Shown one piece after another: positions 13,126-20,045 of a stretch of DNA of 53,717 nucleotides. A program made the translations under genes and the position numbers. This stretch comes from Candidatus Poseidoniaceae archaeon (GTDB taxonomy: Archaea; Thermoplasmatota; Poseidoniia; Poseidoniales; Poseidoniaceae): the NCBI GenBank assembly GCA_028821785.1, contig JAPKFC010000003.1, forward strand, positions 1 through 53,717. Direction: 5' to 3'. Below the pieces are notes generated by a model that was given only the letters and a program-made list of their open reading frames with translations, had not been told where the DNA came from and searched no databases. Numbering within the stretch: position 1 is the first letter of the stretch; every line of letters starts with the position of its first letter.

Positions 13126-14076
13126 TCAGATATCTAAAATATAACAAAACATTAGCGGAGCAACAATAGTAGCATCGCTTTCAATTACAAACTTCTCCGT
13201 CTCAACCGAAAGTTTGCCCCAAGTTATTTTTTCATTGGGTGGGGCACCGGAATATCCCCCATAGGAAGGAGTCGATTCCGAGATTTGGCAGAACCAAGAC
13301 CACAAAGGGGTATCTTTTTCCAAGTCTTGATTGAGCATTGGTACTACACAAATTGGGAAATCTCCAGCGATTCCACCACCTAATTGCAAGAATGCCAACG
13401 GATTATTGCATTGACAATACCATTCTGCTAAACTGGTCATATATCCAATTCCACCAGTGATTGTTTGTTGCTCAACTTTACCTTGCATCACTCTTGCAGC
13501 AAATATATTGCCCAATGTTGAATCTTCCCAACCAGGTACGACCAATGGCAGATTTGCTTGTGCTGCTGCTAATAACCACGAATTCTCTGGTAATGCTTGA
13601 TACTCTAATTCATCTTCTAACAAAATATCATAAAAGAATTGGTGTGGTAATTTTGATTGCCCAAGTTGACTACTTTTTTCCCAACGGTCCATTAGATATG
13701 ATTCGATTTTTCGAAATGCTTTATCTTCGGGGATACAGGTATCTGTCACCCGATTCATGTTATTATCGAGTAAATCGGCTTCATCTTGGGCTGATAAGGA
13801 GCGCCAATCATCAATCTTTTGATAATGGTTATGAGCGACTAAATTGAATAAATCTTCTTCCAAGTTTGCACCTGTACATGAGATTGCTGCAATATGTCCT
13901 GCTCTGATCATAGGCGCAATACTGCGCCCGAGTTCAGCCGTTGACATCGCCCCGGCTAAAGTTAAAAATATCTTACCGCCAGATTCTAGAAATTGAAGTA
14001 ATGATTCACTCGCTGATGCTAATGAACCGGCATTAAAATGGCGGTAGTGCTCTTTGACAAACGTTCTCACGGACAT
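13126..14076 (-). CDS. Deoxyhypusine synthase-like protein (bacterial-type; possible homospermidine synthase)
   Basis: HFNA, TLAGAMSTAELG, CTGANLEED, GGGIAGDF and YGGYSGAPPNEKITWGK (catalytic Lys retained). Confidence 0.88.
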   Translation of the reverse strand: MSVRTFVKEHYRHFNAGSLASASESLLQFLESGGKIFLTLAGAMSTAELGRSIAPMIRAGHIAAISCTGANLEEDLFNLVAHNHYQKIDDWRSLSAQDEADLLDNNMNRVTDTCIPEDKAFRKIESYLMDRWEKSSQLGQSKLPHQFFYDILLEDELEYQALPENSWLLAAAQANLPLVVPGWEDSTLGNIFAARVMQGKVEQQTITGGIGYMTSLAEWYCQCNNPLAFLQLGGGIAGDFPICVVPMLNQDLEKDTPLWSWFCQISESTPSYGGYSGAPPNEKITWGKLSVETEKFVIESDATIVAPLMFCYILDI

Positions 14077-14079
14077 TCT

Positions 14080-14481
14080 TCACTCCTCCGTGTTTTCTTC
14101 TTGGTAGAGGAATCTGTCATGATTAGATTTTTTAATTAACTTGAGGTTGGGCATTACTCGTTCAAGGGCAATGTGAATTTGGTCAACTATTGTATCTGGG
14201 TCACATTGGCCGCAAGTAAAACAATCGATTGCAAGCCAACCTTTTTCTGAATAACAATGCGCAGTTACATGTGATTCATCCAGCAATACTACTGCAGCAA
14301 AACCAGGTGGTGAGGTATTGCCATCAAATTGTTCAACATGGGAGTGCACTTCCTTAGCTTCACTATTTATTACAGCATCTCGCATAATTTGTAACATCCA
14401 ATTACCATCGTCATTATCAATTGGCGAATAACCTGTATAATCAACAAAAATATGGCTTCCGTGTGACTTTAAATTGTTCAT
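14080..14481 (-). CDS. speD: S-adenosylmethionine decarboxylase family pyruvoyl proenzyme (SpeD/SpeH-like)
   Basis: GSHIFVD, LLDE-SHVTAH self-cleavage site and IDCFTCG; GGAGG SD; ATGA overlap with speB. Confidence 0.85.
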   Translation of the reverse strand: MNNLKSHGSHIFVDYTGYSPIDNDDGNWMLQIMRDAVINSEAKEVHSHVEQFDGNTSPPGFAAVVLLDESHVTAHCYSEKGWLAIDCFTCGQCDPDTIVDQIHIALERVMPNLKLIKKSNHDRFLYQEENTEE

Positions 14482-15488
14482 TGCAGATCCTCCTTTTGGA
14501 AAAAGATTGAGTCGCCAATTGTTCTGTTTTTACCGATTTGCTGAATCATTGGATTCCATCTGCCTTGGTCTTTAGCGTTAATATGATTAGCAACTATTTT
14601 TGTTGCTAACATCGCTGCTGTAAATTGGGTTAGTGGTGAATCTATTTGCGGTACAATCTCATTGACATCGGCAGAAATTACTGTTGCTTTTTCTGCATTG
14701 AATAAAGATTCGATTGTTTCCACTGCTTGCCAATATGATAGCCCGCCTGGTACCGGGGTTCCTGTTGCAGGTACGATGGACCCATCTAAGCCATCTATGT
14801 CGATACTTAGGTGAACAGGACCTTCTATCTTTGACAATGTATCTAGCCATTGTTGCCATATATCTCTACCTGTTGAATGATTTTGTGTATCCTTAGCGAA
14901 GAAAGTAGTGATTCTATCATCATTAGAAATGGTTTCAAATTCTTCTTGGCTATATGCCCTAATTCCGACTTGTAGTAGTCTTCCCACACCTAAGTCAAGA
15001 CTACGTGAGGCAGCGCATGCATGCGAATATGCCTCGCCACCTAATTGGCTACGAAGGTCTGCGTGGGCATCGATTTGGACAATGGTCAATTTAGATAAAT
15101 CATTGTTGATGAGGGGATGATTTTTGGCAGCATTAACCAAAGGCGGTAAGATTCCATGTTCTCCTCCCAATGAGAGTGGGAAACAATCCCCAGCATACCA
15201 CGGTTGAAGGTAGTTGGAAATACCATCTAATTGCTGCAATAATGAATTACCTTCACCATTCCATGGTTGATTGGTATGAATTGCATTACCTTTTGGTAGA
15301 TCAGTTCCAAGTAGCGAATCAAATAATTCAACTTGCCCACTTGCTTCAACACAAGATTTTGGTCCTTGGGAAGTTCCTTGACCATAAGAAGTGGTCAATT
15401 CATAGGGGATTTGTAAAATAACGACGTCAACAATTCCGTCATTTTCGGGCAAGCCTAGGAAGTTGCCTTCTACAAACATGCCACTCAC
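14478..15488 (-). CDS. speB: Agmatinase (ureohydrolase family)
   Basis: PYELTTSYGQGT, GGEHGI, DAHADLR, YSHAC, SIDIDGLD and TGTPVPGGL motifs. GTG start, alternative ATG at 15479. Confidence 0.88.
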   Translation of the reverse strand: MSGMFVEGNFLGLPENDGIVDVVILQIPYELTTSYGQGTSQGPKSCVEASGQVELFDSLLGTDLPKGNAIHTNQPWNGEGNSLLQQLDGISNYLQPWYAGDCFPLSLGGEHGILPPLVNAAKNHPLINNDLSKLTIVQIDAHADLRSQLGGEAYSHACAASRSLDLGVGRLLQVGIRAYSQEEFETISNDDRITTFFAKDTQNHSTGRDIWQQWLDTLSKIEGPVHLSIDIDGLDGSIVPATGTPVPGGLSYWQAVETIESLFNAEKATVISADVNEIVPQIDSPLTQFTAAMLATKIVANHINAKDQGRWNPMIQQIGKNRTIGDSIFFQKEDLQ

Positions 15489-15704: not shown

Positions 15705-16124
15705 ATGGGAATGACAATGGGAGAATTGACAAGAGCCATTCAACAGCACATCGATATCGAGATGGATTCGGAAGTTGCACAAGGAATGGCCGAACACGCT
15801 TTAGGATTCTTCGGGTTCTATAATAGGATTATTGATAACGCATTAGAACCTACAGACCGCAACTTGTTTTACATGTTCCAAGATTATGACCTACTGACCA
15901 CTGAGTCTGAAGAAACAACACTTTGGGATGGCCGAGAATGGAGAATCCACTATTGGAAGTTCAAGCCAGATTTGCGTGAGCGCGTTGAAGCTTATATGCA
16001 ACGTGATCTAGAACCTGAAGTAATCGACCCATTCGCAGATGTTTATGGTGGCAATGGTGCTGCAATATGGACAAAGGAAGCAGAAAGGGTCAAAAATCCG
16101 AATGCATTCAATGCAGAATGGTAA
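15705..16124 (+). CDS. Conserved Thermoplasmatota protein (DUF6015-like)
   Basis: FFGFYNRIIDNALEPTDRNLFY ... LTTESEETTLWDGREWRIHYW pattern recalled from Thermoplasmata hypotheticals; GGAGG SD. Confidence 0.65.
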   Translation: MGMTMGELTRAIQQHIDIEMDSEVAQGMAEHALGFFGFYNRIIDNALEPTDRNLFYMFQDYDLLTTESEETTLWDGREWRIHYWKFKPDLRERVEAYMQRDLEPEVIDPFADVYGGNGAAIWTKEAERVKNPNAFNAEW

Positions 16125-16171
16125 TCAAGTTTACCACAATTCCAATTAGGGTGGAGTTTAGAGGAGTTTTT

Positions 16172-17524
16172 ATGCGAGGTATAGCATTGGTAGCGATATT
16201 ATTGCTGGCCGGTTTTACTCCAGCTCTGGGAAATTCTACAGCACAACAACCAGACATTGTTCAAGAACATTGGTACCATTCTTATCTGACGCTGACTCTT
16301 GATGTACAAGCATGGGCTGAAGATTATCCTGAAATCGTCTTATTGACCGTTGCTGGACAGACCGAACTTGGAAAAAATCTATGGGTTGTTCAAATCTCTG
16401 ATTGGACTCAAGATACCAAACCAGATGGTACACAGAAAGAAATTGTTTACATCGATGGTGGGCACCATGGAAATGAGCACCTAGGAACCGAATTGGCATT
16501 CTTAACCGCTGAATATTACATCGAGGGTTGGGCTTCTGGAGATCAAGATGTCATTGATGTTCTTACTACAACTGAACTACACATTCTCATTCTGTTGAAT
16601 GCAGATGGCAATGATATTGACACCCGCTGGAATATCAACCAAGTAGATTTGAATCGAAATTACGACCATTACTGGAATACCTGCCCGACGACCCAGCCAG
16701 GGAGTAGTGCATTTAGTGAATCTGAAACTCTCGCGAATTCTAATTACATGAACACGGTGGTGCCTGATGCTGACCTCTATGTCACTATGCATACTGGAGT
16801 TTGGATAATGCTCTATCCTTGGGGTAAATGGCCTGACCAACCCTCAGATTGGGAGTTATTCCACGGAATAAGGGATGAAGTTCACACAAATATCTCAGAG
16901 ATTCCAATTCAAAATGCAAATCAGGGTTTGTATCCAAATTGTGGAACCAGCAGGGACTATGGATACGGGATAATGGGATTCCCAACTTTCACATTTGAAA
17001 CTGATGATGAGCAATGGTTACCTGGTACAACCGAGCCTTTGTCAGATAGACTTGGAGAAGAATTAGATGTTATGAAATATTTGATTGACAATGTTTGGTA
17101 TTGGAGAGCAAGATTAACGATTGAAGAAATCACAATAGAAGATGATGTAGTAAATTTCGATGTTGTCAATGATGGAAGAACTTCTACAAGGAATGCTACA
17201 CTACAATATCTAAATGAAGAAACTGATGAAATTCTTTGGCAATCAGATAATTTCACTGTTAATACTACAAGTAGAATCAGTGTTTCGACTAATGGATTTG
17301 ATTATGATAATGGAGTCTGGAGGCTATCATACCAAAAACGAATTATCAACAGTGCACAGTGGGTAAATGAAACAGTGGATGAATCACTTGTTTCAATCAT
17401 TAAAGTTGAAGATGATAGTTTCTTACTCGGCTATGGCCTGTTTAATCCTTTATCTATGATAATGGCACTCTCTGTTGTAGCAATTCTCAAGCCCGAATTA
17501 AGTGAAATCGAGACCTCTGAATAG
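16172..17524 (+). CDS. Secreted M14 zinc carboxypeptidase with C-terminal TM anchor
   Basis: Signal peptide; HHGNE, NADG, DLNRNY, MHTG and FTFE motifs. Start moved to MRGIAL (16172), with GAGGAG SD. Confidence 0.9.
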   Translation: MRGIALVAILLLAGFTPALGNSTAQQPDIVQEHWYHSYLTLTLDVQAWAEDYPEIVLLTVAGQTELGKNLWVVQISDWTQDTKPDGTQKEIVYIDGGHHGNEHLGTELAFLTAEYYIEGWASGDQDVIDVLTTTELHILILLNADGNDIDTRWNINQVDLNRNYDHYWNTCPTTQPGSSAFSESETLANSNYMNTVVPDADLYVTMHTGVWIMLYPWGKWPDQPSDWELFHGIRDEVHTNISEIPIQNANQGLYPNCGTSRDYGYGIMGFPTFTFETDDEQWLPGTTEPLSDRLGEELDVMKYLIDNVWYWRARLTIEEITIEDDVVNFDVVNDGRTSTRNATLQYLNEETDEILWQSDNFTVNTTSRISVSTNGFDYDNGVWRLSYQKRIINSAQWVNETVDESLVSIIKVEDDSFLLGYGLFNPLSMIMALSVVAILKPELSEIETSE

Positions 17525-18557: not shown

Positions 18558-20045
18558 ATGGAAATCACAGTAAGTTCAGGAAACAATATCAATGGTACTC
18601 TAATTCTACCACTTTTTCAAGGTACAGAAAAGTTAGATGATTCAATCGTGGGCATCCCTGCTCAATTAAGAAGCCAGATTAACAATGTGTTATCTGACAA
18701 TGATTTCAAAGCAAAGGCAAAATCTACTCTTACGCTTCTTGGAACTGAAGGTGGAAAGGCAATGCTAGTTGGACTTGGCAAGAAAGAAGATGCTGATGCA
18801 AACACATATAGAAAAGCTGGTGCTCGTGTAGTAAAGGCTAGAGGAAAAGCCCATGGAACTGAATTGACTGTGAAATTAGATTCAACTAAAATTGAATTGG
18901 TCTCTGCATTTGCTGAAGGACTACTATTACGAGATTACTCCTATAATCACTACAAAACAATGGATGAAGATGACAAAGAAGATGATCTCAGTGCTAGAAT
19001 TATTTGTGATGAAAGTATTGAAGAAGAGTTGAATGAATCTGTTCGGATTGCTACTGGTGTTGCTTCTGGAGTTCACCTTTCTAGAGACTTAGGAAATGCT
19101 CCACCAAATGATATGTATCCAATGGCATATGCTAAGAAAGCAATGGATTGGGCAAAGCAATATGATTCTGTTAGTGTTGGCGTAATAACTTACGAAGAGG
19201 CTATTGAACATGGAATGGGTGGACTTATCGCCGTCGGTAAAGGTAGTGCAAGAAAACCATGTATGGTTATCTTCAAAATGAATGAGCACCTTGAGGGACG
19301 TTGTCCTGTCATAGTTGGAAAAGGAATCACATTTGACACCGGTGGAATTTCATTGAAGCCAGGTCAAAACATGGATGAAATGAAGTACGACATGGGTGGC
19401 TCTGCTACTGTATTTGGAATGATGGAAGCTCTTGCTTCTACTGGACATACAGGCAAGGTCATTGGAATTACTTGTATGGCCGAAAACATGCCATCTTCCA
19501 ATGCTCAACGCCCTGGTGACGTTATCAAAACGCTTTCTGGCAAGACCATCGAGATTTTGAACACCGATGCTGAAGGACGATTGGTTCTAGCCGATGGTCT
19601 GTGGAAGGCTGGTGATTACGATCCTGAATATATTATTGATTTCGCAACTCTTACTGGAGCCTGTGTAGTAGCACTCGGACATGAAGCGACTGGCCTATGG
19701 TCTAACGACGATGATTTCCGAAACACTATCCACGAAGCAGGAAATGCTGTTGATGAACTGGCATGGCCAATGCCACTATTGCCTGCATTCGAGAAAGAGA
19801 TTACCGATTCAAAGATTGCTGATACTCGTAACCTTGGTGCTGGGCGCTGGGGTGGAGCAAATACCGCAGCTGCATTCTTGAAACAATTCGTACCAATGCG
19901 AGGCGAAGGAGATGACGCAGAACAAATCCCTTGGGCTCACATGGATATTGCAGGTACCTTCTGGGGTGCAAAGACCAACGACATGGTTGGTCATGGTGCA
20001 TCTGGAATACATGTTAGAACCCTTTACCACTTAATCACACAGTGA
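18558..20045 (+). CDS. pepA: Leucyl aminopeptidase (M17)
   Basis: VGKGITFDTGGISLKP, MKYDMGG, NTDAEGRLVLAD and ATLTGA motifs. Confidence 0.95.
   Translation: MEITVSSGNNINGTLILPLFQGTEKLDDSIVGIPAQLRSQINNVLSDNDFKAKAKSTLTLLGTEGGKAMLVGLGKKEDADANTYRKAGARVVKARGKAHGTELTVKLDSTKIELVSAFAEGLLLRDYSYNHYKTMDEDDKEDDLSARIICDESIEEELNESVRIATGVASGVHLSRDLGNAPPNDMYPMAYAKKAMDWAKQYDSVSVGVITYEEAIEHGMGGLIAVGKGSARKPCMVIFKMNEHLEGRCPVIVGKGITFDTGGISLKPGQNMDEMKYDMGGSATVFGMMEALASTGHTGKVIGITCMAENMPSSNAQRPGDVIKTLSGKTIEILNTDAEGRLVLADGLWKAGDYDPEYIIDFATLTGACVVALGHEATGLWSNDDDFRNTIHEAGNAVDELAWPMPLLPAFEKEITDSKIADTRNLGAGRWGGANTAAAFLKQFVPMRGEGDDAEQIPWAHMDIAGTFWGAKTNDMVGHGASGIHVRTLYHLITQ

Follow-up and report, generated by a model that had tools for sequence, protein, structure and literature searches.

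A conserved speB–speDA–speY operon of Poseidoniales archaea very probably encodes an arginine decarboxylase derived from S-adenosylmethionine decarboxylase

Organization of the speB–speDA–speY locus

We analyzed a 53,717-nucleotide stretch of DNA, contig JAPKFC010000003.1 of assembly GCA_028821785.1 (hereafter the window), from a metagenome-assembled genome (MAG) of a Poseidoniaceae archaeon. The MAG comprises 1.82 Mb in 92 contigs, is 86% complete and holds the window as its contig 28. The subject is a group of three genes on the minus strand, coding for an arginase-fold ureohydrolase (speB-like), a homolog of class 1b S-adenosylmethionine decarboxylase (AdoMetDC; speD-like, here speDA) and a paralog of deoxyhypusine synthase (DHS; DHS-like, here speY). 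The features are as follows.

14478..15488, minus strand: speB-like gene, arginase-fold ureohydrolase of 336 aa (PF00491), listed start GTG
14080..14481, minus strand: speDA (speD-like gene), class 1b AdoMetDC homolog of 133 aa (PF02675)
14272..14274, minus strand: codon of Ser70 in the motif D68-E69-S70-H71, predicted self-cleavage and pyruvoyl site, aligned with Ser63 of Thermotoga maritima AdoMetDC
13126..14076, minus strand: speY (DHS-like gene), deoxyhypusine synthase paralog of 316 aa (PF01916)

The three open reading frames (ORFs) lie head to tail in the order speB-like, speD-like, DHS-like, with Pfam scores of 172 bits for Arginase, 66 bits for AdoMet_dc (cut-off 25) and 143 bits for DS. 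The initial annotation of this DNA had described an ATGA overlap between the first two genes and a DHS-like gene 3 nt further on, and both can be read directly. At the first junction, ctgcaATGAacaat, the stop codon TGA of the speB-like gene and the ATG of speDA overlap within the four nucleotides ATGA, and at the second, gaggagTGAagaATGtcc, a 3-nt spacer (TGA-aga-ATG) precedes the start of the DHS-like gene. GGAGG-like motifs are found ahead of both internal starts. The speD-like and DHS-like genes also share a reading frame, as their starts are 405 nt, or 135 codons, apart with only TGA plus AGA between the two coding sequences. For the speB-like gene, the ATG at 15479 is more likely to be the start than the listed GTG at 15488.

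The SpeD homolog as a probable arginine decarboxylase

The SpeD-like protein of the window matched the AdoMetDC structures of T. maritima (1TLU/1VR7) and Aquifex (2III) with E values of 1e-8 to 5e-10, and these sequence-level matches suffice to assign it to the AdoMetDC fold. In the structure–sequence alignment, Ser70, His75 and Cys90 correspond to Ser63, His68 and Cys83 of the T. maritima enzyme, which act as the self-processing serine and the catalytic histidine and cysteine, respectively (PMC10407285). An alignment of 24 sequences from the clade showed Asp68, Ser70, His71, His75, Tyr77, Asp86 and Cys90 to be invariant. The protein has the fold and the processing and catalytic Ser, His and Cys in common with true class 1b AdoMetDC (1TLU/1VR7, 2III), from which it differs in the HTWPE motif and in having no SpeE partner that could be found. 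The proline of this motif is fully conserved in true AdoMetDC and is the residue setting it apart from arginine decarboxylase (ADC) forms (PMC10407285). In the window protein the motif reads HCYSE, and the proline is replaced by Ser78. The same loss extends well beyond the window: for the 150 top-ranked representatives in a library of 1.84 billion proteins, with eukaryote-like lengths in many of the 150, every motif that could be located took the form DESHxxAH(C/S/A)Y, with the proline absent.

The initial annotation had found no aminopropyltransferase in the operon or the window, and had proposed a search of the genome for speE and the pyruvoyl decarboxylase gene pdaD, naming activity on AdoMet alone, together with a spermidine synthase elsewhere in the genome, as evidence that would speak against an arginine decarboxylase. 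Profile searches extended to the whole genome detected neither spermidine synthase/aminopropyltransferase (PF01564, Spermine_synth) nor PdaD (PF01862). They likewise detected no alanine-racemase-fold SpeA, ornithine decarboxylase (ODC) or CANSDC (PF02784) and no saccharopine-dehydrogenase-type HSS/CASDH (PF03435), and only a sub-threshold match was obtained for OKR_DC_1 (PF01276). A single AdoMet_dc (PF02675) gene and a single arginase-fold gene are present.

Because the MAG is incomplete, the key searches were repeated over 201 Poseidoniales genomes, 61 of which are of high quality. A SpeD homolog was found in 191 of the 201 genomes (60 of the 61 high-quality ones), almost always in single copy, and spermidine synthase (PF01564) was found in one. 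The closed chromosome of a member of the same genus (G003, CM001443.1) also gave no PF01564 match. The sole Spermine_synth match, at G143:C115:2086-2448 (L006), scored 50 bits. The open frame that contains it is 807 aa long and comes from a short contig, in a MAG whose contamination is 2%; contamination or a different methyltransferase-like protein may explain the match.

PdaD, the usual pyruvoyl arginine decarboxylase of archaea, has its reaction and cofactor chemistry in common with SpeDA but belongs to an unrelated fold, and it was not found in this genome. It was detected in eight of the 201 genomes of the order, six of them in one genus on the Thalassarchaeaceae side (g21; e.g. G177, G199 and G079). 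This is also the genus in which the SpeD homolog is most often missing or weak, which suggests that in g21 the SpeD homolog has been partly replaced by PdaD as arginine decarboxylase, or the reverse.

Direct biochemical evidence comes from orthologs. In a search for SpeD homologs without SpeE, Li et al. (2023, J Biol Chem, PMC10407285) found speDA, speB and speY clustered in the same arrangement in a Ca. Poseidoniales MAG and in the uncultured marine group II/III euryarchaeote KM3_15_H06. Neither of the two SpeDA proteins, AIF02979 (KM3_15_H06) and DAC51064 (Ca. Poseidoniales), could restore spermidine in a speD-deficient strain of E. coli. Once purified, DAC51064 and AIF02979 decarboxylated L-arginine with Km values of 2.8 and 2.1 mM, respectively, and had no ornithine, lysine or AdoMet decarboxylase activity. 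Together with SpeDA from Gimesia maris, Solirubrobacter sp., Nannochloropsis gaditana and Tribonema minus, they formed one well-supported ADC clade (PMC10407285). The window SpeDA matches DAC51064 and AIF02979 in the order of its host, in its gene cluster and in the lack of SpeE or another ADC or ODC; it comes from a different species or allele, and the two assayed proteins are assigned to its clade by their taxonomy and gene arrangement. The other four members of the clade have bacterial or eukaryotic hosts, whereas that of the window is archaeal, and in G. maris the partners of speDA are aguA/aguB instead of speB (PMC10407285). The SpeD-derived ADC of Crenarchaeota, the Sulfolobus/Saccharolobus solfataricus paralog, offers a parallel in that an AdoMetDC fold has given rise to a pyruvoyl ADC where PdaD is lacking. 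However, it arose by an independent and more recent duplication beside a retained AdoMetDC and SpeE (PMC10407285), neither of which is kept in Poseidoniales.

Taken with its single-copy occurrence, its taxonomy, its synteny and its position in the tree described below, for which reasons we file it in the published SpeDA group, the window SpeD homolog is very probably a pyruvoyl L-arginine decarboxylase derived from AdoMetDC. The proposal that this gene encodes a neofunctionalized arginine decarboxylase is thus borne out by arginine-specific orthologs (PMC10407285) and by a genome in which no SpeE, PdaD, SpeA or ODC was detected. Its suggested novelty is not, since the SpeD-derived arginine decarboxylase of Poseidoniales is already known, the same case having been published for the same group in 2023 (PMC10407285).

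We also considered whether the protein might be a true AdoMetDC, or an AdoMetDC-derived ornithine decarboxylase (SpeDC), acting with an unrecognized partner. Both Pfam and NCBIfam give it the name AdoMetDC, and its score for the AdoMetDC equivalog TIGR03330, 74.8 against a cut-off of 75.65, falls short by less than 1 bit; moreover, the SpeDA group has diverged little overall from AdoMetDC (PMC10407285). SpeDC in turn is recognized by diagnostic Gln, Thr, Phe and Tyr residues in the central region (PMC10407285). Nevertheless, this explanation appears extremely improbable, given that the AdoMetDC-diagnostic proline is absent, that SpeE was found in only one of 201 genomes and that the assayed Poseidoniales orthologs lack AdoMetDC, ODC and lysine decarboxylase activity (PMC10407285). 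In addition, the ureohydrolase gene of the operon implies that the intermediates carry guanidino groups, and ornithine would not yield such compounds.

A further role for agmatine is indicated by TiaS, which in archaea converts agmatine to agmatidine on tRNA-Ile2. The enzyme is encoded in this genome, at contig label C90. With TiaS present and PdaD and SpeA not found, SpeDA is the only recognizable source of agmatine for tRNA agmatidine, and AUA decoding, like polyamine synthesis, probably requires it.

Conservation of the operon in Poseidoniales

Gene order was compared in the best 80 of 552 species-representative loci, all from MAGs of Marine Group II (Poseidoniales) and mostly labeled Poseidoniaceae. 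The speB–speD–DHS-like arrangement was kept in 74 of these 80 loci. In the 79 loci that allowed a measurement, the gap between speDA and speY was always 0 to 9 nt. The junction between speB and speDA ranged from −4 to 73 nt. An arrangement retained in 74 of 80 loci with so narrow a speDA–speY gap is not due to chance. At four Thalassarchaeaceae-type loci (L039, L065, L074 and L085) no speB was found upstream of speDA–speY, and at L065 an aminotransferase gene occupies its place.

The phylogenetic tree of SpeDA, which was midpoint-rooted and made without a named characterized outgroup, traced the 89 labeled Poseidoniales sequences to an ancestor of a 97-tip clade with a support of 0.955, and the window protein falls within this clade. 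Its own subclade comprises seven loci that are 79–97% identical to one another and have 55–63% identity to the rest of the order. The speD-like gene was also examined as a possible pseudogene or chance ORF, and this was ruled out by the intact frame, the conserved catalytic residues and the presence of the gene in 191 genomes.

SpeY, SpeB and the order of the pathway

The initial annotation had left the DHS-like gene as a bystander of the other two. This view could not be maintained, because its product is a SpeY-type paralog and a canonical DHS is encoded elsewhere in the genome. The top NCBIfam match of the operon protein was the homospermidine-protein (SpeY) model, with scores that did not reach the SpeY equivalog cut-offs, and the WGK lysine motif is kept. 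For the SpeB-like protein, the best NCBIfam match was the agmatinase equivalog TIGR01230, with a score of 158.3 under a cut-off of 174.3, and the metal-ligand motifs GGEH, DAHAD and SIDIDGLD are readable in its translation.

All bacterial SpeY enzymes tested by Li et al. (2026, J Biol Chem, PMC13625781) produced diagmatine (G44G) from two molecules of agmatine. The two SpeY-associated SpeB homologs for which kinetics were measured hydrolyzed G44G and had undetectable activity on agmatine, and the authors argued that a true agmatinase would starve SpeY of its substrate (PMC13625781). The bacteria of this SpeY/diagmatine ureohydrolase pathway (T. thermophilus, Caldilinea aerophila, Winogradskyella algicola and Capsulimonas corticalis) have a trio of ADC, SpeY and SpeB like that of the window, and C. 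corticalis also uses SpeDA, as does the window operon (PMC13625781). In contrast to these hosts, the archaeal host here also carries canonical DHS, TiaS and, as seen in relatives, aIF5A.

By analogy with the bacterial enzymes, the operon DHS paralog is read as SpeY, a diagmatine synthase acting in homospermidine formation, and the SpeB-like protein is probably a diagmatine (G44G) ureohydrolase, a plain agmatinase being less likely. We hold with good confidence that the operon would form one translationally coupled unit leading from arginine to sym-homospermidine in an order without spermidine synthesis. As a first step, SpeDA would cleave itself between Glu69 and Ser70 to generate an N-terminal pyruvoyl group and, as the assayed orthologs indicate, would convert L-arginine to agmatine, with no role for the enzyme in AdoMet metabolism. 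SpeY with NAD+ would then condense two molecules of agmatine to N1,N9-bis(guanidino)homospermidine, that is, diagmatine or G44G, a step modeled on bacterial SpeY only. In the last step, the SpeB-like ureohydrolase would take off both guanidino groups as urea to leave homospermidine. The sequence from agmatine through SpeY to SpeB appears moderately favored over one from agmatine through SpeB to putrescine and then SpeY, and little putrescine would be made by the diagmatine pathway. Hence, for the arginine–agmatine–putrescine scheme of the initial annotation, the agmatine step stands, while the formation of putrescine by SpeB is probably incorrect in view of the SpeY and SpeB data (PMC13625781).

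Fused genes bear on this order, and two kinds were found.

L088 (G010:C4:6500-11500), L089, L090 and L091, and library proteins P0199 and P0328: SpeDA–SpeY fusions, each in one ORF (441–504 aa measured from stop to stop)
L095:3001-4503 and L096:684-2186: SpeB–SpeDA fusion P0189, 500 aa (Arginase plus AdoMet_dc), with a separate 377-aa DS gene after it

Five Poseidoniaceae genera (g3, g6, g7, g9 and g10) encode SpeDA and SpeY as a single ORF; frames of 434–504 aa were seen in 13 sampled genomes, and four were verified. These fusions tie the decarboxylase directly to SpeY, and after self-cleavage of such a fusion the pyruvoyl alpha chain would stay joined to SpeY. The diagmatine order fits these fusions, as well as the tighter speDA–speY junction and the score of the SpeB-like protein under the agmatinase cut-off. 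It is also in keeping with a single pool of agmatine that must also serve tRNA-Ile2 agmatidine, a demand in agreement with a SpeB that leaves free agmatine untouched.

In the main alternative, the agmatine formed by SpeDA is turned into putrescine by SpeB, acting as a true agmatinase, and SpeY makes homospermidine from this putrescine. This scheme was in use until 2026, the mechanism of SpeY having been unknown up to then according to the authors of the later study, whose SpeY data are all bacterial and none archaeal (PMC13625781). Agmatinase TIGR01230 remains the best NCBIfam match for SpeB, the speB and speDA genes overlap by ATGA, and a SpeB–SpeDA fusion exists in a related lineage. However, every tested bacterial SpeY makes G44G from agmatine, so that an agmatinase would drain the substrate, and both assayed SpeY-associated SpeB homologs were inactive on agmatine (PMC13625781). 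SpeB falls under the agmatinase equivalog cut-off, an agmatinase would compete with TiaS for the sole source of agmatine, and the coupling between speDA and speY, which also occur fused, is both tighter and more universal than that between speB and speDA. On balance, we regard the putrescine route as rather unlikely.

Several points weigh against the reading of the operon as an arginine–diagmatine–homospermidine unit and should be considered alongside the evidence above. Arginine decarboxylase activity was measured on orthologs of the window SpeDA, and its identity to other Poseidoniales members spans 55–97%. The genomic negatives are results of profile searches of a MAG that is 86% complete, so that the absences rest partly on its relatives. 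Both SpeB and SpeY score under every NCBIfam equivalog cut-off, and their sequences thus leave the exact substrates unfixed. The diagmatine route has been tested on bacterial enzymes only, the archaeal case having been left open by the authors (PMC13625781), and the SpeB–SpeDA fusion P0189 agrees no less well with an order in which putrescine comes first than with the diagmatine order.

A separate deoxyhypusine synthase and the proposed fates of agmatine

A canonical DHS is encoded on contig 47 of the same genome (G000:C47:5256-6164; L002:1480-2490, minus strand), with a score of 369.5 for NF002294 that exceeds the cut-off of 350. The operon SpeY is 24% identical to it, and almost every one of the 201 Poseidoniales genomes carries both DS-family paralogs. 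On account of this second gene and the low identity between the two proteins, the operon DHS-like gene does not encode the deoxyhypusine synthase of the cell. Searches of this genome with PF01287 and TIGR00037, and of its six-frame translation for the hypusine-loop motif, found no aIF5A. It is present in all five near-complete relatives, for which reason its absence here is read as a gap in the assembly and not as a loss.

These observations bear on a further explanation, in which the operon would modify aIF5A: the DHS-type enzyme would transfer an agmatine-derived group that the agmatinase-like enzyme then trims to give deoxyhypusine. A non-canonical agmatine-based model of this kind was proposed for Haloferax volcanii, where DHS is clustered with an agmatinase-like gene that is essential and agmatine is a main polyamine (PMC5178350), and Poseidoniales likewise have aIF5A, yet no spermidine synthesis. 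Against it stand the separate canonical DHS, which scores above its equivalog cut-off, the distance of the operon paralog from that enzyme together with its top match to the SpeY model, and the presence of the cluster in bacteria, which have no aIF5A. Such a role for the operon therefore seems very improbable.

Even if the operon itself makes a free polyamine, as we favor, aIF5A would require an aminobutyl donor, for which the candidates are homospermidine from the operon and a Haloferax-like agmatine-based route (PMC5178350). A broader proposal, which we put forward tentatively and consider possible but less than even, is that in the spermidine-free Poseidoniales one SpeDA feeds three products, all essential: agmatidine on tRNA-Ile2 via TiaS, homospermidine via diagmatine, and the deoxyhypusine of aIF5A. 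As part of this proposal, the canonical DHS would use homospermidine or an agmatine-derived donor instead of spermidine.

Other domain combinations and neighboring genes

Four library proteins, P0277 (L094:97-2367), P0307, P0310 and P0320, combine a SpeDA domain with a methyltransferase domain of the NNMT/PNMT/TEMT type, and in P0277 (756 aa) and P0307 a DS domain also follows the methyltransferase domain. P0277 fills a 2.5-kb JGI contig that resembles a eukaryotic transcript. The SpeDA–methyltransferase proteins hint that the agmatine/homospermidine route may lead to a methylated compound.

Upstream of the operon and divergent from it lies a DUF6015 gene (window 15705-16124, plus strand, 252 bits). 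Its position is kept in 69 of the 80 Poseidoniales loci, and it also adjoins the loci with SpeB–SpeDA fusions, the metagenomic locus of P0189 having DUF6015 and M14-peptidase neighbors like those of the window. The DUF6015 protein could be a regulator or partner of the operon. Genes for an M14 zinc carboxypeptidase (window 16067-17524, plus strand), which also has a counterpart nearby in related loci, and for an M17 leucyl aminopeptidase (window 18558-20045, plus strand) are found close to the operon. The two peptidases fit the protein-degrading lifestyle of Marine Group II, and a link to arginine supply is possible. On the 3' side of the trio, the next ORF encodes 1062 aa without a Pfam match, and its translation ends in a hydrophobic stretch like a membrane anchor; judged by its sequence, it looks like an unrelated surface protein. 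Contamination as the origin of the operon was ruled out, as the flanking genes (DUF6015 and M14 peptidase) and the synteny match those of other Poseidoniales.

Implications for polyamine metabolism in Marine Group II

The uncultured archaea of Marine Group II rank with the most abundant archaea of the surface ocean, and their polyamine chemistry has to be deduced from genomes. The window adds scope rather than a new principle to what has been published: the module is near universal and single-copy in the order, from which spermidine synthase is essentially missing. Further details are the rarity of PdaD, the canonical DHS beside SpeY and the natural SpeDA–SpeY fusions. Neither the SpeDA–SpeY and SpeB–SpeDA fusions, nor the link to TiaS, nor a second DHS throughout the order appears in the two earlier studies (PMC10407285, PMC13625781).

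If one SpeDA does feed all three fates of agmatine, it would provide a positive answer to the question raised in 2026 whether archaea carry agmatine-dependent and classical DHS together (PMC13625781), and the SpeDA–SpeY fusions of sister genera would be natural channeling forms of the first two steps. In practical terms, the database labels S-adenosylmethionine decarboxylase and agmatinase, when given to these genes, mislead metabolic models of ocean archaea.

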